Shown piece after piece: positions 2,119-56,906 of a stretch of DNA of 64,000 bases. The notes under the pieces are model-generated. The model ran no database searches and was not told the origin of the DNA. It saw nothing but the letters and a program-made list of their open reading frames with translations. The position numbers were made by a program, and so were the translations under genes. Numbering within the stretch: the stretch's first letter is position 1; every line of letters begins with the position of its first letter. Source of the stretch: an uncultured Candidatus Saccharibacteria bacterium (GTDB lineage: Bacteria > Patescibacteriota > Minisyncoccia > Phycocordibacterales > Phycocordibacteraceae); the NCBI GenBank assembly GCA_964550425.1, contig CAZJZB010000003.1:6-64005 (forward strand). The letters are read 5' to 3'.

Positions 2119-2143
2119 ATGAAAGACCTCAGAGGTCTTTCAT
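2119..2143. repeat. REP-like 25-bp palindrome (atgaaagacctcagaggtctttcat) overlapping the transposase stop codon
   Basis: Perfect palindrome. Same unit recurs at 2649-2673 and 2837-2861; related unit at 47034-47081. Confidence 0.85.
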
Positions 2144-2838
2144 CTTTCAAGAATTAAGTCAGTAGTTAACGCTGCTTCCGAATCCTTCAGATATTCTTTG
2201 ATTGCTTCCTGATAATTTTCAAATGCATTTCCGAATAAATCTTTGGTAAGAATGGAAGGGAAATTTTTCTTTCCACAATAGTCGAGATAACTGCTCCAGC
2301 GATACTCACCCAGATACGCCAATGTCTCTTTTGCATTTTTTATGGTTCCCTTATCTCGTTCGCGCCACTTGGTTGCTCCTGTAAGATAATCGAGCGGATT
2401 GAGATGTAGATAGTGGAGGATGTATAAGAAATGCGGTTCGTTCTCAATAAGAATTTTCTTTGTTTTTCCTTGGAAGAGATGCCCGTGTCGTTTATATCGT
2501 TCATTATAATATTTCGCGTAGCCGACGTTTACCTTCATCATGAATTTTGCCAGCCCGCCTTCAATGAGTTCAGAAATGAGTAAATGATAATGATCTTTCA
2601 TGAGACACCATCCGTGAATCTCTACCAATTTCTCTCGGACTCGCCGGAATGAAAGGCCTCTGAGGTCTTTCATTCCGGAATCAAACAGTCGGTGTAAATT
2701 GTCTGCCGATCTTGTGTCGTTAAATTCATACAGATTATGAATGAAACGCGCATAGTCCTGTGAATCTAGAAATAGGTCACGCCCCTCGATACTGTGATTG
2801 AGTAGGTGATACAGCTCCACTTGTTGAGTATAACCCAT
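2140..2838 (-). CDS. IS200/Y1-type HUH transposase (REP-associated tyrosine transposase-like, COG1943 family)
   Basis: HGWCLMKDHYHLLI (HUH motif), RHGHLFQGK..., YILHYLHLNPLD (catalytic Tyr region). AT-rich relative to neighbours. Flanked by REP palindromes that overlap both start and stop codons. Start set at MGYTQQ. Confidence 0.75.
   Translation of the reverse strand: MGYTQQVELYHLLNHSIEGRDLFLDSQDYARFIHNLYEFNDTRSADNLHRLFDSGMKDLRGLSFRRVREKLVEIHGWCLMKDHYHLLISELIEGGLAKFMMKVNVGYAKYYNERYKRHGHLFQGKTKKILIENEPHFLYILHYLHLNPLDYLTGATKWRERDKGTIKNAKETLAYLGEYRWSSYLDYCGKKNFPSILTKDLFGNAFENYQEAIKEYLKDSEAALTTDLILER
2644..2678. repeat. REP-like palindrome inserted in-frame inside the transposase CDS (encodes GMKDLRGLSFRR)
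   Basis: ccggaatgaaaggcctctgaggtctttcattccgg; one mismatch to the flanking copies. The reading frame is maintained. Confidence 0.8.
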
Positions 2839-2861
2839 GAAAGACCTCTGAGGTCTTTCAT
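2837..2861. repeat. REP-like 25-bp palindrome overlapping the transposase start codon and the stop of the next ORF
   Basis: atgaaagacctctgaggtctttcat, a perfect palindrome. Confidence 0.85.
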
Positions 2862-3226
2862 TTCGGCAACCAGGTGCGAAGGTCAATGAGTTCGGTTTTC
2901 CATGTATTGTTAATCAGTTGCGCAACGGTGGATCCACTGATTGGCATACCATCACTACCATAATAAGTTGCAAACACCACCGTTTTCGGAACTTTTTCTG
3001 GAGGATTTATCACGGATCTGTTATATTCGTACTCGGTATGTCCATCTTCTGTTGCTACGCTTATTTCCCACAAGTAAATACCTCGTTCATCTTCAAGTTT
3101 TCGCACCTCCGTATATTCTTTCGTACCCGTCAATTTTTCAAAGACGGCCGCAACTTCTTCTAACGTAGGAGCAGTTTCTATTTTAACTCCGGTTTCAATA
3201 TTCTTCGGAGGTCCATCAGCAGTCAT
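2858..3226 (-). CDS. hypothetical protein (AT-rich, next to the transposase)
   Basis: 122-aa ORF with no recognizable motif; low-GC like the adjacent transposase. Confidence 0.4.
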   Translation of the reverse strand: MTADGPPKNIETGVKIETAPTLEEVAAVFEKLTGTKEYTEVRKLEDERGIYLWEISVATEDGHTEYEYNRSVINPPEKVPKTVVFATYYGSDGMPISGSTVAQLINNTWKTELIDLRTWLPK

Positions 3227-18431: not shown

Positions 18432-18526
18432 ATCGATACACTATACATACCACACCGCACTTTCCATGTCAAGCCCGAGGGGGCTTGACATTATTGATAC
18501 TATAGTGTATTCATTGGTAAGACGAT

Positions 18527-42115: not shown

Positions 42116-44338
42116 CTAGGCCAAGTCTAACTGCCCGAAAATCTCCGCCGCTTCAGGCCAGCGAGCGACCATGAGGAATTCGGCGTCTTTGGTAGGCATA
42201 GATTGCCAGATTTCCTCGGTGACAAATGGCATGAAGGGGTGGAGGAGTCGCAATGTGCGGTCGAGGAGCATGAGGAGAAGCCGCGCGCGCGAAGCGCGCG
42301 CGGAAGCATCGGCGCTGGCGAGAATCGGTTTTGATTCTTCGATTATCTTGTCCGCGAGTTCATGCCATGCATAGTGATAGATTTTTTCCGCCGCCATATA
42401 GATTCGGAATTCTTCAATATCAAGCGTGACTTCTTGAGTCAGTGTTTCGTATTGTTTAATTAGCTCGCGCTCGCGTGCAGAAAAATGGGCACGCTCCGGG
42501 GCGCTAGCCCAAGTCCTATCCCCATTTTTCTGCCCGTTCGCGCTCGCCCCGGCATTTTCGAGAATGAAGCGCGCTATGTTCCAGAGTTTATTTGCGAAAT
42601 GTTTATAGCCCTTCACTTTATCTTCACTGATACGCATATCGGTGCCGGGTGTGTTCCCGACGACGAGCGCCATCCTTGCAGCATCCGCGCCGAACTTCTT
42701 CGCGATATCAAGCGGGTCGAGATTGTTACCGAGCGATTTCGACATTTTGCGTCCCTGCGCATCGCGAACAAGGCCGTGCAGGTACACTGTTTTGAAAGGT
42801 ATCGTACCGAGCACAAATTCAGTCATCAGTATCATGCGCGCGACCCAGAAAAAGAGGATATCGTATCCGGTCTCGAGAAGATCGGTCGGGTGATAGGTTT
42901 GGAAATCAGGGGTTGCTTCCGGCCACCCAAGAGTTGAAAAGGTCCAGAGGCCGGAGGAGAACCACGTATCAAGGGAGTCCTCATCCTGTGTCCACCCCTC
43001 TTCGGCGGGAGCGACGCCGACTACAATTTCCTCGCCCTTGTACCAGACCGGAATGCGATGACCGTACCAGATTTGCCGGCTGATGCACCAGTCGCGGAGG
43101 TTTTCTATCCAGTGAAAATAGGTTTTTTCGAAATATTCAGGAACGATTTTAATCATTCCAGAGCGCACGGGCTCAAGCATCAATTCTTTCAGGGTTTTTC
43201 CGCGACCGGGAACTTCTTTATTCACCTCGATGAACCACTGCAACTTCGGCAAGGGTTCAATGATGCCGCCGGTGCGCTCGGCGGTCGCGACGTTTTGTTG
43301 AACATCTTCTTCCTTTTCGAGCAGTTCTTCGCTCTTGAGCCACTCCACGACCGTCTCGCGCGCCTCGCTGGTTTTCTTCCCCTCAAGACGACCTGCGACC
43401 GTCATCTTTGCATGTTCGTTTATGACGATGGTTTCGTGCGAGAGTTCGTGTCGGTCGGCAATGTCCCAGTCGGTCTGGCTGTGTGCTGGCGTGAGACCGA
43501 CTGCGCCCGTACCGAAGGCCGGATCAACCTCTTTGTCGGCGACAACTTTTATATGAATCGGCACATCGCAGAAAGTCGCATCGTACTCTTTGCCGACGAA
43601 TGCACGGTACCGCGCGTCATCCGGATGCACGGCGACGGCGACATCGCCCACTTTGGTCTCGGGGCGTGTTGTCGCGATAGGAATAGGGAAGTCCTTTGAG
43701 TAGCGGAACGTGTAGAGTTTCGCGGGGCGCTCCTCGTACACTATCTCGTCGTCCGAAATGGTGGTCTGCCCTTTAGGATCCCAATTCACGATGCGCAAGC
43801 CGCGATAGATGAGTCCGGCATCGTACATACGTTTGAATATCGTGCGCACCGCGCGGCTGCGCGTTTCATCGAGCGTGAACGCTTCGCGCGACCAATCGAG
43901 CGAAGCGCCCATCGTTTTGAGCTGATTCACAATGGTGTCATGGCTCTCCGCTGCAAATGTCTCAATGCGCTTGAGCAATTCTTCGCGCCCGAGGTCGTGA
44001 CGATTTTTACCCTCATCCTTCTTTATCTGCTTTTCCACGATCGACTGTGTCGCAATTGCGGCATGATCGGTTCCGGGCATCCAGAGCGTGCGGAAACCGC
44101 GCATTCGCTTGTAGCGGATGAAGACATCTTCTATTGCGAGCATGAGCGCGTGGCCCATATGAAGCCGTCCGGTAACGTTTGGCGGCGGGAGCACGATGGC
44201 ATACGTCGGCGCGTCCGCTTTGGCGACGTCTTGCTTCACGCACTCGTCCGGATCGAACAACCCGCTTTTTTCCCATGCCGCATATACCCGCGGCTCGGTT
44301 GTGGCAGGGTCGTACGGGCTAAGGAATTTCTCAGGCAT
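42116..44338 (-). CDS. valS: valine--tRNA ligase (short, ~740 aa)
   Basis: HMGHAL (HIGH-type) and KMSKSLGN motifs; ValRS-type editing and anticodon-binding regions; lacks the long C-terminal coiled coil. Confidence 0.9.
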   Translation of the reverse strand: MPEKFLSPYDPATTEPRVYAAWEKSGLFDPDECVKQDVAKADAPTYAIVLPPPNVTGRLHMGHALMLAIEDVFIRYKRMRGFRTLWMPGTDHAAIATQSIVEKQIKKDEGKNRHDLGREELLKRIETFAAESHDTIVNQLKTMGASLDWSREAFTLDETRSRAVRTIFKRMYDAGLIYRGLRIVNWDPKGQTTISDDEIVYEERPAKLYTFRYSKDFPIPIATTRPETKVGDVAVAVHPDDARYRAFVGKEYDATFCDVPIHIKVVADKEVDPAFGTGAVGLTPAHSQTDWDIADRHELSHETIVINEHAKMTVAGRLEGKKTSEARETVVEWLKSEELLEKEEDVQQNVATAERTGGIIEPLPKLQWFIEVNKEVPGRGKTLKELMLEPVRSGMIKIVPEYFEKTYFHWIENLRDWCISRQIWYGHRIPVWYKGEEIVVGVAPAEEGWTQDEDSLDTWFSSGLWTFSTLGWPEATPDFQTYHPTDLLETGYDILFFWVARMILMTEFVLGTIPFKTVYLHGLVRDAQGRKMSKSLGNNLDPLDIAKKFGADAARMALVVGNTPGTDMRISEDKVKGYKHFANKLWNIARFILENAGASANGQKNGDRTWASAPERAHFSARERELIKQYETLTQEVTLDIEEFRIYMAAEKIYHYAWHELADKIIEESKPILASADASARASRARLLLMLLDRTLRLLHPFMPFVTEEIWQSMPTKDAEFLMVARWPEAAEIFGQLDLA

Positions 44339-44367: not shown

Positions 44368-45585
44368 TTACGCGAGGTGCGCATTGCCGTTCGCTTTGAT
44401 ATCGGTTGCGAACTCTTTGCGCCTCGCGCGATAGAACCCAGCGAGCGCTATCATGACGGCGTTGTCAGCGGTAAGTGCCGGGGAGGGGATGCGAAGCATC
44501 ACTTCCGGATATTCGTTCTTTATTTCTTTCGTAAAAATGCGGCGAATATGAGTGTTTGCTGAGACGCCTCCACCAAGGACAAGAGTCCGCGCTTGCGTTT
44601 GCTCGAGCGCGCGCGACGTTTTCTTCCACAGTACGTCAGTGACAGCGTTTTCAAATTCATGCGCAACATGCCGACTGAACATGTCCTTATCGGCATCCGA
44701 CCGGTCACTCATAAGGACATCTTGTTTTTTCAATAAATACAGCACCGCTGTTTTCAATCCTGCAAATGAGAAATCGCACGTTGCATCGTTCATCATCGGC
44801 CGCGGCAATGCGAATGTGGACATCGGATGTCCTAGTTTCTGAATGTGGACATCGGATGTCCTAACTTGTTCGGCGAGACGCGATATCTCGGGCCCGCCGG
44901 GATAGGGTAGACCGAGCATCCGCGCAACCTTATCAAAGGCCTCGCCGACGGCATCGTCGCGCGTCTCTCCGATGAGTCCATATTCAAACCATTTTTTCAT
45001 TACCACCAGCTCGGTATGCCCTCCTGAGATGAGAAGCGCGAGCACCGGCATCCGAACATTGTCAATAATGAGCGTATCACCATCGCTTGTGGCGAGCGCG
45101 GAAAGTATATGCCCCTCCATATGGTTGACGGCAATAAGGGGTTTGTTCCAGATGAGCGCAAGCGCCTTGGCGAAATTGATACCGACCCAAAGAGCCGGTT
45201 CAAGTCCGGGACCCGCCGTGACGGCTATCACATCTATTTCCGGCGGTTCGCATTCGGAAATGAAATCAAAGAATGCTTCGGCCAATCCCGATTCACGCGC
45301 CAACATTTCAGAAATGTTGGCCCGCATTTCCTCCGGTAGTACCTGTCTGTCTTCGTGCAAAAGTTCCGCCTCTTCAAGCGCTGCTTCTAGAATAGGCACG
45401 AGATTCTTCGCGTGTTCACGTTTTGCAAGCATGGGAAAAACACCTCCATATTCTTTGTGTATTTCAACTTGCGAGAGCAGTGCGTTCCCGAGCACGGTAA
45501 ACTCGGCGCGTTCCTCATCGCCAGTACATTCGAGTATGGCGATAGCCGTCTCGTCACAGGATGTTTCAATTCCCAAGATTTTCAT
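44368..45585 (-). CDS. tsaD: tRNA N6-adenosine threonylcarbamoyltransferase
   Basis: MKILGIETSCDETAIAILE and Kae1/TsaD family signature. Start trimmed to MKILGIE. Confidence 0.85.
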   Translation of the reverse strand: MKILGIETSCDETAIAILECTGDEERAEFTVLGNALLSQVEIHKEYGGVFPMLAKREHAKNLVPILEAALEEAELLHEDRQVLPEEMRANISEMLARESGLAEAFFDFISECEPPEIDVIAVTAGPGLEPALWVGINFAKALALIWNKPLIAVNHMEGHILSALATSDGDTLIIDNVRMPVLALLISGGHTELVVMKKWFEYGLIGETRDDAVGEAFDKVARMLGLPYPGGPEISRLAEQVRTSDVHIQKLGHPMSTFALPRPMMNDATCDFSFAGLKTAVLYLLKKQDVLMSDRSDADKDMFSRHVAHEFENAVTDVLWKKTSRALEQTQARTLVLGGGVSANTHIRRIFTKEIKNEYPEVMLRIPSPALTADNAVMIALAGFYRARRKEFATDIKANGNAHLA

Positions 45586-45611
45586 GTGATTGCCGCTTTG
45601 GCTAGCGGCAA

Positions 45612-46493
45612 TCATGCCGCGCCCGGAACGGGCGATACCGGCATATTTTCCTTTAATACAATCCAAGGAAGCGGGTCACCCCACTTAATCCGGAATGCCG
45701 AAGCGCGAGGATGTCCATTGCCGCCGTATTTCCGCGCAATAGCTGATACATCAATGGTCTCATCGCTTCTGAGGGAGACGTTCAAGACATCCCCGTGCAG
45801 GTTCACTATCATGCCCAAGGGAGGTTTCAAATGCACGAGCCGGTTTCCCACATCCGAAGCGAACATATCCACGGCGCTCGCGAGATAGCATTCAAATCCT
45901 TCAAACGAGATGAGCGCCGCCTTGTTGGCGATTTGTTCCACGAGTATCGCGAAATGTTCCGCGTATATTTTTCCGCGTTCTATGAGCGCCGCGCGTTCCA
46001 TATCATTCTCAAGTTTGGCGGAAAGGGCGTCCCACGTATCAAAATGGAAGGGTTGTGCATACATATACGAGATTATCGCGCGAGAATCAGGCAGTTTAAA
46101 GACATACAAATCGACGTCCTCTACATATTTTAATAATTTTGGAACGGGAACGTTGGGGTGAAAGTAACTCCACGCGATAGTCGCTCCCGAGCGTTTCTCG
46201 TCAAAAACATATTCCGGCATGCTTTCTACGACGTCTCTATTGCCGAGGTGGTGGTCAAGTACTGTCACGGATGCCGCCTCCTTGATAAGAGCGTCCACGA
46301 TCTCTTTTTGATAGCAGAAATCAGCGAAGTATAATTTCCTGCCCGCAAGACCCTCGGGAGCCGGTCGGCCGTGTTTGACTGGTATATATTCCGCCGTGTC
46401 GCCGAATTTTTTCCATGCAGCGTAGGCACTGCCGAAGCCGTCTGGGCAACCGCCATGGTACAAAATCACTATGTTTTTATGATGGGAGTGCAT
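45612..46493 (-). CDS. DHH-family phosphoesterase (NrnA-like nanoRNase/pAp phosphatase)
   Basis: DHH motif (VLDHHLG) and DHHA1 GGGH motif (GGNGHPRASAF). Confidence 0.7.
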   Translation of the reverse strand: MHSHHKNIVILYHGGCPDGFGSAYAAWKKFGDTAEYIPVKHGRPAPEGLAGRKLYFADFCYQKEIVDALIKEAASVTVLDHHLGNRDVVESMPEYVFDEKRSGATIAWSYFHPNVPVPKLLKYVEDVDLYVFKLPDSRAIISYMYAQPFHFDTWDALSAKLENDMERAALIERGKIYAEHFAILVEQIANKAALISFEGFECYLASAVDMFASDVGNRLVHLKPPLGMIVNLHGDVLNVSLRSDETIDVSAIARKYGGNGHPRASAFRIKWGDPLPWIVLKENMPVSPVPGAA

Positions 46494-46510: not shown

Positions 46511-47419
46511 TTATTGCACAAACCGCACATAGATGCCGGCAGGAACAACGCGCTCGGAAGAGGATTCCTTGATATGAAGTTCGCCGCATTCGCTGTTGGC
46601 CTCGCCAAAGGTGCCTTCCACTGCTTGTGCAAAAGAGCGCGGCGCATAGCCAGCCGCATAGCCGTTTATAAGGAAAAAAGAACCATGAGTTTTTGAGAGC
46701 AATTCATTGAGCGTGGCAAGAAGCGTATGTAAATCTTCTTCGATCTTCCATACCTCGCCTTTGGCGCCCCGGCCGAAGGCCGGCGGGTCAAGAATAATAC
46801 CGTCGTATTTTGCGCCCCGTCGTACCTCGCGTTTTACAAAAGAGAGAGCATCATCCAGCACCCAACGAATGCTATCCTCAGGGATATGCGAAAGCCGCGC
46901 GTTTTCATGCGCCCAGTCCAGGGATTGTTTGGATGCGTCCACATGCGTGACGAATGCGCCGGCGTGCGCAGCAACGACGGATGCAATACCGGTGTAGCCG
47001 AAGAGATTCAGCACCTGGATGTTCGACCTTGGAGGTCCTTCATCTGATGAACGACCTCCAAGGTCTTTCATTCGTTCGTGAAGCCACTGCCAATTGGGCG
47101 CTTGCTCCGGAAACATGCCGGTATGCTTGAACCCCGTGAGCCGTACGATGAATCGGGCGGCATTCCAGGAAAGTTCCCATGCTTCCGGCACCGACTTTTT
47201 CATATTCCAGGAACCTTTCTTCTCGCGGAAGGTGAATTCGGCATGCGCCTTTTCCCATAGTTCCGGGCGCATTTTTCCCCACAACGCTTGCGTCTCCGGC
47301 CGCGTGATAATGATGTCGCCGAAACGTTCTAATTTCATAGAGTCGCCCGAATCAAGGAGCTCGTAATCGCTCCATGGGAGGGATACAAGATGATTGTCGC
47401 AATTTAATTTTTTTGTCAT
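46511..47419 (-). CDS. class I SAM-dependent rRNA methyltransferase (RlmI/RlmK-like) carrying an in-frame palindromic-element insertion
   Basis: NLFGYTGIASVVAAHAGA (SAM motif I) … DGIILDPPAFGRG (motif IV). The insert encodes …ERMKDLGGRSSDEGPPRSNIQ… from 47034-47081. Confidence 0.7.
   Translation of the reverse strand: MTKKLNCDNHLVSLPWSDYELLDSGDSMKLERFGDIIITRPETQALWGKMRPELWEKAHAEFTFREKKGSWNMKKSVPEAWELSWNAARFIVRLTGFKHTGMFPEQAPNWQWLHERMKDLGGRSSDEGPPRSNIQVLNLFGYTGIASVVAAHAGAFVTHVDASKQSLDWAHENARLSHIPEDSIRWVLDDALSFVKREVRRGAKYDGIILDPPAFGRGAKGEVWKIEEDLHTLLATLNELLSKTHGSFFLINGYAAGYAPRSFAQAVEGTFGEANSECGELHIKESSSERVVPAGIYVRFVQ
47034..47081. repeat. 48-bp inverted-repeat element related to the REP family, in-frame within the methyltransferase gene
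   Basis: gaccttggaggtccttcat-ctg-atgaacgacctccaaggtc-tttcat; shares the gacct..aggtctttcat core with the REP copies at 2119/2649/2837. Confidence 0.75.
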
Positions 47420-55271: not shown

Positions 55272-55544
55272 TTATCGCTTGCCGCTCTTGCCACGCGCAT
55301 TCTTTTTTGCAGCAGGGTCTATCTTGCCGAGCTTCACGAGCTCATTGTACTTCTCGCGCCTGACTTTAGAAATAAGGGCGCGCTTGAGACCGACATTCTT
55401 TGATTTGGTGCGCTGCCAGTAGCGACGATTGCGTACCTCGCGTACGAGACCAAGCCCCTGCGCGCGGCGGGTAAAACGGCGTATGAGCGCAGTTGAACTT
55501 TCATTTTTTCCGCGCCTCACCTCAACTCGTGTATCAGCAGTCAT
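55272..55544 (-). CDS. rpsU: 30S ribosomal protein S21
   Basis: VEVRRGKNESSTALIRRFTRRAQGLGLVREVRNRRYW… aligns with S21; basic C-terminal extension. Confidence 0.75.
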   Translation of the reverse strand: MTADTRVEVRRGKNESSTALIRRFTRRAQGLGLVREVRNRRYWQRTKSKNVGLKRALISKVRREKYNELVKLGKIDPAAKKNARGKSGKR

Positions 55545-55675: not shown

Positions 55676-55730
55676 ACAACCTATCAAATGTTTGTAACGG
55701 TCGTTATAAACATTTGATAGGTTGATGCAA
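55676..55730. repeat. perfect 16-bp palindrome with a nested inner stem (AT-rich) between the HisRS-like gene and rpsU
   Basis: aacctatcaaatgttt-gtaacggtcgttat-aaacatttgataggtt. Confidence 0.7.
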
Positions 55731-55760: not shown

Positions 55761-56906
55761 CTAAGTAACGGACTTCAGTCGTTCTATAAGACCAGAGAGA
55801 GGAAGGACGGTTTCTTCCTGGGTCTGCCGATTGCGCAAGATGGCGGAGCCCTCGAGCGCCTCTTTGCGCCCCATGATAAGGAGATAGGGACTCTCTCGCC
55901 GCTCGGCGAGATAGAGCTGTTCGGTCAGCGACTCGACACCGATGTTCTGCGTTAAAGAAATACGTGCTTTTCTGAAGTCCTCAGCAAGACGGATTGAGAG
56001 ACGTTTCGCTTCGTCGCCGATATGGACGAACGAAAATCGTATTCGCGGAATTGAGGCCTTCTTAACTACCATACCCGTACTCGCTATTTGAAATACCGCA
56101 CCGGTGGCGCTTATGGGTGCGGCGGGGAAGAAATGGCGCGTGAAGTCGGAATAGCGCGAACCCCATGCAATGCGCCGCTCGCCGAGAACAAGCTCAAAAC
56201 ACGTGTCGTTCCAGACATTGCCGCGACTAATAAGATTGCGCGCGAGTTCATATGGTGTCTCGGTCATCTCAAGATATTCGAGCAAGTCCTCAAAACGTTT
56301 GCGGCTCGCATCCGAGAGATGCTCGCTTGGCGCCGGCAAATCCTCCGCGCATTCGCGCGCTATGGCGAGCTCGGCGGCCTCGAAAGTGTCGCGCTTGGCG
56401 CAGGTAATGCATTCCTCCGGAAGTACATCAGCGCGTTTTTTGAAAAAGTTCGTCAGTTCACGCGCGTAGCGCGCACGGGTCTCTTTGTCGCCCATGGAAT
56501 TGATACGAACAAGCGGTTCTTCATGGAAAAGGTCGCGTGCGAGCGCAATGAGCGCGCGAATGACAACCGCATCAGAGAGCGCGCGGTCGCTGCCAAGCGC
56601 ATGAAATTGTATAATCGCTTTCTTTGGCGCCGGGCGACCTTGAGCAATGTTTGTATGCCAAACGAAAAGCGGCTGTCGCGGAGAAGGCGCGTATTCGACA
56701 TTCTGAAATTGCTTCAAGAAATTTGTAATTGTTTCGGCGATAGGATCAAGCGTCAGATGTGAGAGCGTTTCGGAATAGTTTGTATTCTTGCGCATACTTC
56801 CGCGCGTTTTAGCGGTGAGTGTTGAAAGCGGCGTGAAGCCGTAGTATTGACCGACCGCATGCGCTTTGCTTAAAAGTTCTTCCGCCGGAATGGTGTCGCG
56901 CATCAT
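55761..56906 (-). CDS. histidyl-tRNA-synthetase-family protein with degenerate class II motifs 2 and 3 (HisRS-like; catalytic competence uncertain)
   Basis: Aligns with HisRS (QFHALG, VRINSMGD, RARYARELTNFF, VWNDTCFE ~ His-A, AWGSRYSDF ~ His-B, C-terminal anticodon-binding domain). Motif 2 FRHERPQ is replaced by WHTNIAQ, and motif 3 Arg/Glu are absent. Confidence 0.5.
   Translation of the reverse strand: MMRDTIPAEELLSKAHAVGQYYGFTPLSTLTAKTRGSMRKNTNYSETLSHLTLDPIAETITNFLKQFQNVEYAPSPRQPLFVWHTNIAQGRPAPKKAIIQFHALGSDRALSDAVVIRALIALARDLFHEEPLVRINSMGDKETRARYARELTNFFKKRADVLPEECITCAKRDTFEAAELAIARECAEDLPAPSEHLSDASRKRFEDLLEYLEMTETPYELARNLISRGNVWNDTCFELVLGERRIAWGSRYSDFTRHFFPAAPISATGAVFQIASTGMVVKKASIPRIRFSFVHIGDEAKRLSIRLAEDFRKARISLTQNIGVESLTEQLYLAERRESPYLLIMGRKEALEGSAILRNRQTQEETVLPLSGLIERLKSVT

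Follow-up and report, generated by a model that had tools for sequence, protein, structure and literature searches.

In the 64-kb window analysed here (the whole stretch of contig CAZJZB010000003.1 presented above), a methyltransferase gene is interrupted in frame by two inverted palindromic repeats akin to those around a transposase gene some 44 kb away in the same stretch. We consider it probable that this pair is a REPIN-like doublet of repetitive extragenic palindromes (REPs), that it belongs to a Patescibacteria REPtron, and that it is tolerated in frame in a domain linker. The first-pass annotation, made from the letters of the window alone, had read the segment as an in-frame REP-related insertion into the methyltransferase gene, and this reading was supported by orthologs, a structure model and further copies of the element. 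Comparison of sequences established the relationship among the repeats, the empty ancestral state of the site and the in-frame dispersal of the family in many housekeeping genes.

The REP doublet and its host gene

The host gene and the parts of the doublet are the following.

46511..47419, minus strand: class I S-adenosylmethionine-dependent methyltransferase of the PF10672 (RlmI/RlmK-like) family, 302 amino acids (aa), all family-invariant residues retained
47024..47071, minus strand: REP doublet (REPIN-like hairpin), 16 codons (MKDLGGRSSDEGPPRS), methyltransferase residues 117-132
reaching 47019, minus strand: the doublet with its degenerate outer end, 18 codons, ending ...NI
47047..47071, minus strand: REP unit 1, sense atgaaagaccttggaggtcgttcat, encoding MKDLGGRS(S), with 2 mismatches to ATGAAAGACCTCNGAGGTCTTTCAT
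47044..47046, minus strand: spacer of 3 nt, cag in sense orientation, centre of the doublet hairpin
47019..47043, minus strand: REP unit 2, inverted, sense atgaaggacctccaaggtcgaacat, outer end degenerate

The coding (minus) strand reads atgaaagaccttggaggtcgttcat-cag-atgaaggacctccaaggtcgaacat, that is, two inverted 25-nt palindromic units with 3 nt between them; the variant in the window can also be written as atgaaagaccttggaggtcgttcat-cag-atgaaggacctccaaggtc. A repeat search of the window returned the arms as 47025-47044 and 47046-47065 (20 nt, 95% complementary, 1 nt apart). Single REP units of 25 nt make 10-12 of 12 self-pairs, the stem of the doublet is 20 bp long, and the mismatches of the doublet hairpin are concentrated at its outer end. 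The palindromic string given in the first-pass annotation, gaccttggaggtccttcat-ctg-atgaacgacctccaaggtc-tttcat, was indeed present on the plus strand, but at 47025-47071, about 9-10 nt to the left of the reported 47034-47081.

When the doublet strand was folded, -20.3 kcal/mol was obtained as DNA (z = -5.35) and -34.6 kcal/mol as RNA (z = -4.99), and in neither case did any shuffled sequence fold as well. Hairpins with a stem of at least 16 bp amounted to 10 centre/loop combinations in the window and to none in each of 10 shuffles. An Rfam scan of the doublet gave no family above threshold; the only matches were sub-threshold ones to microRNA precursors, of the generic hairpin kind. As no T-run was read in the sequence after the hairpin, a role as terminator was rejected.

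The 64-kb window was searched with the REP pattern ATGAAAGACCTCNGAGGTCTTTCAT, allowing up to 3 mismatches. Only 2119-2143, 2649-2673, 2837-2861 and 47047-47071 (2 mismatches) were matched, and the chance expectation was 0. Of the 24 specified positions, 23 were the same in REP unit 1 as in the repeats at 2119, 2649 and 2837, which bears out the kinship with the REP copies at 2.1-2.9 kb that had been proposed. The peptide MKDLRGLSF, reported for the REP inside the transposase gene, was likewise found there (as GMKDLRGLSF), and the peptide of the doublet also starts with MKDL.

The host gene matched PF10672 with 38.4 bits (cutoff 27), and both NLFGYTG and DPPxF, invariant in the family, are present in its product. 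The nearest solved structure was 2igt_A from Agrobacterium (E = 1.1e-61). All NCBIfam equivalog scores were far below their cutoffs and thereby do not fix an RlmI- or RlmK-like substrate. The open reading frame (ORF) continues through the element, as had been stated, and encodes ...LHERMKDLGGRSSDEGPPRSNIQVLNLFGYTG...; the wider translated stretch is ...NWQWLHERMKDLGGRSSDEGPPRSNIQVLNLFGYTG.... In the extra segment described by the annotation, the repeat-encoded peptide is real and comprises 16 codons, or up to 18 when the degenerate end is counted, but 'ER' is host sequence. Of the doublet's three frames a single one is stop-free, as read from the sequence; the ATGA/TCAT termini introduce TGA stops into both others.

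The AlphaFold2 model of the methyltransferase had a mean predicted local distance difference test score (pLDDT) of 79.5 and a predicted template modelling score of 0.82. It placed a helix at residues 104-120, a coil at 121-134 and Rossmann strand beta1 at 135-139. The first 4 of the repeat-encoded residues 117-132 extend the end of the helix in this model and the other 12 lie in the coil before beta1; residues 121-130 of the coil were of low confidence (mean pLDDT 57). The check proposed in the first-pass annotation, whether the insert is a surface loop, came out in favour, since in this prediction it is mostly low-confidence coil of the helix-to-beta1 linker.

The transposase locus and its relatives

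The second group of repeats surrounds and enters the transposase gene.

2143..2838, minus strand: gene of a Y1 (HUH) transposase resembling REP-associated tyrosine transposases (RAYTs), stop codon 2140-2142; presumed mobilising enzyme
2119..2143: 3' REP copy of the transposase gene, holding the transposase stop codon and abutting the aldolase stop codon
2649..2673: internal REP copy of the transposase ORF, encoding MKDLRGLSF, which falls in the loop that joins helix 1 to strand 2
2837..2861: 5' REP copy of the transposase gene, overlapping the annotated ATG and holding the stop codon of ORF 2858-3226 (minus strand)

The REPs at 2119-2143 and 2837-2861 thus bracket the gene, and the third copy interrupts its ORF. 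The 232-aa product of 2143-2838 matched PF01797 (Y1_Tnp) with 29.2 bits against a cutoff of 23. Its AlphaFold2 model was of moderate quality (mean pLDDT 59.8, 60-89 in the core). In a Foldseek comparison of this model with the PDB, the top 26 matches were all Y1 transposases of the IS200/IS605 family, including 2a6o, 2xo6, 4er8, 2f4f and 2ec2. IS608 TnpA (2a6o) and ISDra2 TnpA (2xo6) were among the best, together with the E. coli RAYT in complex with a REP hairpin (4er8), from which the model deviated by a root-mean-square distance of 4.1 A over 146 columns. Residues H83 and H85 (HYH), Y139, Y143, H145, L146 and N147 were invariant across 40 transposase homologs. The two tyrosines, Y139 and Y143, sit in a Y-L-H-Y-L-H-L-N-P helix whose Y-x3-Y-L-H-L-N-P residues are invariant, and the assignment of the catalytic role to one or the other is presumptive. 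The Pfam match, the fold match, the invariant HUH and tyrosine residues and the flanking REPs together identify the locus 2143-2838 as a REP-plus-RAYT unit, or 'REPtron'.

As in the solved structures of IS608 TnpA (2A6O), ISDra2 TnpA (2XO6) and E. coli TnpA-REP (4ER8), the predicted order of elements is beta-alpha-beta-beta-alpha-beta-alpha, with the HUH motif on strand 3 and the tyrosines on the next helix. The protein differs from them in its length of about 230 aa, in a poorly modelled C-terminal extension and in sharing only 12-16% identity, and its activity is a predicted one.

The locus is tightly packed. Two stop codons, that of the transposase (2140-2142) and that of ORF 2858-3226 on the minus strand (2858-2860), are provided by ATGA/TCAT ends of REPs, the aldolase stop codon at 2116-2118 abuts a REP, and the annotated transposase ATG overlaps another by 2 nt; the REPs at 2116-2143 and 2836-2861 are set in without spare intergenic bases. 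In nearly all of 70 homologs inspected (set P0121-P0240), the position of the internal REP, which is in the loop joining helix 1 to strand 2 and upstream of the HUH motif, was taken up by a REP-encoded peptide; a few homologs of 218 aa were without it. The peptide varied with the REP type, being MKDL(R/G)GLSF in some and NVGP(R/P)RSYI or NVGHRKSYI in others. Since it changes with the REP type, the conserved feature lies at the DNA or RNA level, and the internal REP might serve in autoregulation or as a master copy.

The layout of three REPs and its spacing are common to six orthologous transposase loci (L084, L091, L104, L117, L120 and L121), the distances being 530 and 188 nt in the window and 531 and 188 nt in L084. 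The transposase adjoins the aldolase in L117 and L120 too, so that the arrangement is syntenic. A homolog in L124 (P0179) showed the same 5'/internal/3' layout with a spacing of 192 and 537 nt. Its REP, ATGTAGGACCTCSGAGGTCCTACAT, differs from that of the window by compensated changes and carries the classical GTAG tag. The more distant transposase of L105 (44% identity, second clade) is flanked by a second REP type, aATGTAGGACATCSGATGTCCTACATt. Comparison of these loci showed that repeat type and transposase type are associated and co-vary. When the transposase was searched by tblastn against 80 methyltransferase loci, no copy was found within +/-10 kb of the methyltransferase in other genomes.

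Alleles of the linker site and dispersal in other genes

We aligned the proteins of 120 close methyltransferase orthologs (70-86% identity), all from Patescibacteria metagenome-assembled genomes or metagenomes, and measured the linker between the invariant NW.W and VLNLFGYTG. An uninterrupted linker of 12 residues, e.g. LSEKVSKLEKPN, was found in 58 of the 120, and that of 2IGT has 13 residues (LKNAVETADRPLK) with the segment absent. These lengths indicate that the short linker is the ancestral state. The expectation that the segment would be lineage-specific held in part: it is absent from these 58 orthologs and from 2IGT, but the site is polymorphic and inserts are not confined to one lineage. 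DNA was recovered from 80 orthologous methyltransferase loci, whose linkers fell into the following classes.

10 aa, 15 loci: no doublet; some with a single small palindrome, e.g. L054 cgggacgtcgtacgtcccg
12 aa, 36 loci: empty
14-22 aa, 9 loci: mostly other short inserts; L005 (21 aa) has a REP doublet
24 aa, 9 loci: REP doublets with near-perfect 20-22-bp stems
27-29 aa, 3 loci: L049, window-type REP plus second-type REP; L010, unrelated long hairpin; L036, doublet with a 27-bp stem
38-41 aa, 8 loci: unrelated 114-123-nt element (RKQSGRPEGGDPRTFSQ)

The linker of the window has 23 residues, a net gain of 11 residues (about 33-36 nt) over the empty alleles. In the 24-residue class the arm sequences vary by genome, e.g. 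ggacgtcgtacgtcc, ggacctcggaggtcc and ggacatcggaagtcc. When 11 doublet alleles were compared, 86% of the cells paired and 6 pairs had changed on both sides; the covariation score was reached by 0 of 500 shuffles. As judged from these alignments, what the doublet alleles share is the palindrome and not the peptide, and the linker is a hotspot common to at least four unrelated palindromic families. In a neighbour-joining tree of the methyltransferase with the insert masked, filled and empty alleles were interleaved, with weak resolution.

Two of the other families at this site were also seen elsewhere. The 114-123-nt element is a long imperfect hairpin encoding ..ARKQSGRPEGGDPRTFSQ.. and occupies the methyltransferase site in L008, L009, L016, L017, L019, L040, L047 and L056; in L040 it is present at tsaD site 2 as well. 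A further family (..RLGTVSEG..) was found in the methyltransferase of L010, P0052, P0056 and P0061 and in tsaD of L009, L067 and L070. Rfam scanning of the 114-nt 'class B' insert gave no family above threshold, only sub-threshold microRNA-precursor matches, and Rfam had no family for the ..RLGTVSEG.. element either.

A scan of metagenome contigs for window-type REPs returned 42 loci, six of which are the orthologous transposase loci named above; the family is dispersed over 42 metagenomic contigs and ten or more gene families. Loci L081-L122 came from the Hainich groundwater series. In related metagenomes, in-frame copies, either single REPs (9 codons) or doublets (16-18 codons), occurred in genes whose identities were confirmed with Pfam. 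The hosts were UvrA, the N-terminal subunit of transketolase, glutamyl-tRNA synthetase (GltX), tRNA-guanine transglycosylase (Tgt), the delta' (HolB-like) and gamma/tau (DnaX) subunits of DNA polymerase III, a ComF-like phosphoribosyltransferase, a PrmC-like methyltransferase, TsaD and orthologs of the present methyltransferase. Most of the related REP copies were inside ORFs, and two frames are in use, MKDL(G/R)GLS(S/F) and (N/D/H)ERP(P/R)RSF(I/M). The doublets of other genes also had the layout REP, 3 nt, REP, with ctg, cag, caa or tta as the spacer. The L002 methyltransferase and the L039 tsaD ortholog had an identical 43-nt doublet, and the GFVNPSSDEGFTKP element was common to tsaD (L005 and L050) and the methyltransferase (P0009, P0014 and P0043). 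The 25-nt motif ATGNN-RGAC-N7-GTCY-NN-CAT was counted 18 times in 1.23 Mb of loci but not once in any of 20 shuffles. By reading of the 6-nt flanks of the insertions, no common target motif was evident. Further copies in other ORFs, for which the first-pass annotation had proposed a search, therefore exist in frame in at least 10 other gene families, besides those flanking orthologous transposase genes. The presence of the same family in frame in the UvrA, transketolase, GltX, Tgt, DnaX, HolB-like and TsaD genes shows it to be a dispersed, presumably mobile element.

Several further palindromes were observed in and around the window. The window tsaD gene (44368-45666, minus strand) holds a second REP family in the region 44803-44880, GGACATCGGATGTCC, as two direct copies 29 nt apart; the units at 44818-44832 and 44847-44861 are in frame and encode VRTSDVHIQKLGHPMS. 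This second family forms a doublet there, and its cognate transposase clade was seen in L105. The same site was hypervariable in 54 tsaD orthologs, with many different palindromic inserts. Most Kaiserbacteria-type TsaD orthologs also have a 37-residue insert (LHED...TRAKISEILARE...CEPP; window 45238-45363), which is absent from L005, L056, L067 and L070. Its core is a 14-16-bp palindrome (45296-45324) that co-varies, gccaaaat/attttggc versus gacaaaat/attttgtc, and it may be an older, fixed in-frame palindromic element. Orthologs of a 740-aa gene (window 42116-44338, minus strand) contain the single in-frame REP units HVGRGTSYM and NVGRGTSNM (L022 14903-14927, L045 6921-6945, L044 9480-9504); the ORF in the window has two imperfect inverted repeats, at 42467-42543 and 43455-43515. 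A 26-nt intergenic palindrome at 18466-18491, atgtcaagcccgagggggcttgacat, has REP-like ATG...CAT termini with another core and is present in one copy in the window. The longest hairpin of the window, at 55677-55724, has a 23-bp stem and a 2-nt loop, is AT-rich (caacctatcaaatgtttgtaacg/cgttataaacatttgataggttg) and unrelated to the REP family, and lies between ORFs 55272-55544 and 55761-56906, both on the minus strand.

Origin of the insert and relation to known systems

The nearest relative of the window gene, L001, is 83% identical to it at the nucleotide level and has an empty site. In 20-codon windows on both sides of the junctions the identity to L001 was mostly 82-93%, falling to 67% in the window just upstream of the element. 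This comparison places the gain of the element after the split from L001-like relatives. The gene of L110, in contrast, is 73% identical to that of the window and 43% identical at third codon positions, and yet 47 of the 48 positions of its element match, the two diagnostic substitutions and the cag spacer among them. The aligned sequences thus indicate much stronger conservation of the element than of its host gene; the element was either copied from a conserved pool or is strongly constrained. The left junction is at the same codon in the window and L110; the right one differs, NIQ in the window and N in L110.

Such a pattern might be expected had the element arrived by homologous recombination or short-patch gene conversion from the filled allele of another lineage, for which both the near-identity to the distant L110 allele and the common left junction speak. 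However, both flanks resemble the empty L001 and not L110 (64-75%), no L110-like tract was visible at 20-codon resolution, and the right junctions differ. Import of the whole region by recombination was rejected for want of an L110-like tract around the element, and we regard recombination or conversion of either kind as very unlikely.

The high conservation could also mean that the hairpin is a selected functional element at this site, whether a translation-pausing mRNA structure at the boundary of the N-terminal and Rossmann domains, a site of RNase action or of regulation, or one bound by the transposase-derived protein. Besides the 47 identical positions in a gene with flanks at 73%, this would be in line with the convergence of at least four unrelated palindromic families on one methyltransferase site and likewise on one tsaD site, with the retention of complementarity despite sequence change (86% paired, 6 double changes) and with the strong RNA fold of -34.6 kcal/mol. 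On the other hand, any insert is absent from 58 of 120 orthologs, the closest ones included, and the same elements occupy many unrelated genes at unrelated structural positions. The hairpin has neither an Rfam match nor a following T-run, and the mismatches of the doublets are mostly not of the G-U kind (11 G.T, 5 A.C, 39 other). Copying from a conserved master pool would account for the high conservation equally well. We therefore judge a selected function at the site to be unlikely.

It was also considered whether the palindrome formed in place by template-switch or quasipalindrome mutation, its likeness to the repeats at 2 kb being coincidental. The net gain is smaller than the whole palindrome, so one arm could be native. 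Nevertheless, the first arm is unlike the ancestral codons (VSKLEK), and identical elements exist in more than 10 other genes from independent assemblies. Local origin was rejected on account of these identical elements and of the REP-consensus match, for which 0 were expected by chance; it is hardly conceivable.

We thus favour acquisition of a REPIN-like doublet. The inverted 25-nt units would form the 20-bp hairpin typical of REPIN architecture, in the same family as the repeats of the transposase at 2143-2838, and the doublet would have been acquired in the PF10672 helix-to-beta1 linker after the split from relatives with a 12-residue linker. The insertion would have survived because its length is a multiple of three, exactly one frame is stop-free and it landed in a linker, the last 12 repeat-encoded residues being modelled as low-confidence coil. 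The insert is presumed to be a passenger that the enzyme tolerates, not one of its functional parts. Mobilisation as single-stranded DNA is established for the IS200/IS605 family, whose enzymes recognise DNA hairpins at element ends, and has been proposed for RAYTs; the Y1 transposase of the window would presumably mobilise the doublet in the same form.

Several observations weigh against this account. The only NCBIfam match of the Y1 transposase was NF047646 (REP-associated tyrosine transposase), at 35.1 bits and below the cutoff of 80, and sequence searches of the PDB with the protein, alone and then as a 40-sequence profile, did not find a Y1 transposase. Only five REP units are present in the 64-kb window, three of them at the transposase. 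The window REP, ATGAAAGACC, has GAAA where classical RAYT-associated REPs carry GTAG; the REPs of the homologous transposases in L124 and L105 read ATGTAGGACC, which shows that the wider family does have the tag. At the insertion some 5-7 VSKLEK-type codons of the host are gone, a loss that known Y1 transposition does not predict. Finally, a neutral old passenger would not be expected to stay nearly identical to the L110 element.

The presence of the same element at the same site in independent lineages may reflect a permissive-site filter or a target preference; an older REP may also have been replaced, or a very short patch converted. The chimeric doublets of L005, L106/L107 and L049 suggest stepwise events placing one REP next to another. 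A broader reading, which we hold to be doubtful, is that REP-transposase units constitute a lineage-wide system that repeatedly writes, or overwrites, palindromic cassettes at a few preferred sites in essential genes. Each unit would harbour a copy of its REP within the transposase ORF, perhaps to regulate itself or as a master copy, site choice would stem from target or REP-to-REP specificity and not from selection only, and the cassettes would be near-identical through ongoing copying. The preferred sites may be the methyltransferase linker, tsaD site 2 and the UvrA N-terminus, and the cassettes may have a role as mRNA or DNA hairpins.

In 2013, Di Nocera et al. (PMC3733652) reported intragenic GTAG and CGTC REPs, more than half of them dimers or grouped repeats. 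These are a minority class of REPs, found in uvrA, tRNA synthetases, replication genes and others, with the richest cases in Opitutus terrae and Rickettsia conorii (RPE-4 and RPE-6); REPtrons were also described. The elements studied here resemble them as short palindromic units, often inverted dimers, in frame in conserved genes of the same categories (uvrA, tRNA synthetases, replication genes). As in the REPtrons of that study, REPs flank the RAYT gene and their ends give stop codons to adjoining ORFs, and the sister elements in L124 and L105 carry the GTAG tag. The differences are the Patescibacteria host, the GAAA in place of GTAG in the window REP, the REP at a conserved position within the transposase ORF, and the several families at one orthologous site.

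REPINs and RAYTs were described by Bertels and Rainey in 2011 (PMC3116915). In common with that system, an inverted REP pair makes one long hairpin in which the match between the arms is better than the self-match of each unit, and the associated Y1 transposase gene is syntenic across relatives. Classical REPINs are extragenic and number tens to hundreds of copies, whereas the copies here are mostly intragenic. The window doublet therefore departs from classical REPs in two respects, the GTAG tag and the extragenic location, and agrees with them as a short stem-loop palindrome with copies flanking a RAYT and an inverted-doublet hairpin.

Rickettsia palindromic elements (RPEs), reviewed in PMC10969869, are in-frame elements of about 150 bp encoding a conserved peptide. 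Compared by description only, they are alike in being in-frame palindromes in unrelated housekeeping genes of a reduced genome that add a peptide at fold-compatible positions; the present elements are shorter (27-54 bp) and tied to a recognisable transposase. The first-pass annotation had held that such insertions were well known for RPEs and apparently undescribed in lineages like the candidate phyla radiation (CPR). In a search of an incomplete literature library for CPR, Patescibacteria or Parcubacteria together with palindromic, REP or RAYT elements, no report for the lineage was found, in keeping with the second part, but intragenic REPs are known outside Rickettsia too (PMC3733652). It appears that only the host lineage is new, intragenic REPs and Rickettsia RPEs being already known.

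Taken together, these findings extend REP/RAYT-type mobile palindromes and the in-frame colonisation of essential genes to Patescibacteria (CPR). In small, gene-dense genomes, gene interiors are almost the sole place for such elements to persist. Length polymorphisms in conserved CPR proteins (the methyltransferase, TsaD, UvrA, glutamyl-tRNA synthetase, DnaX and others) can stem from such cassettes and are not to be taken as functional lineage-specific loops, and the hotspot sites are natural maps of insertion-tolerant positions in the host proteins. Testable handles on how REP-RAYT systems are maintained are offered by the conserved REP of the transposase ORF and by cassettes that are nearly identical in diverged hosts.

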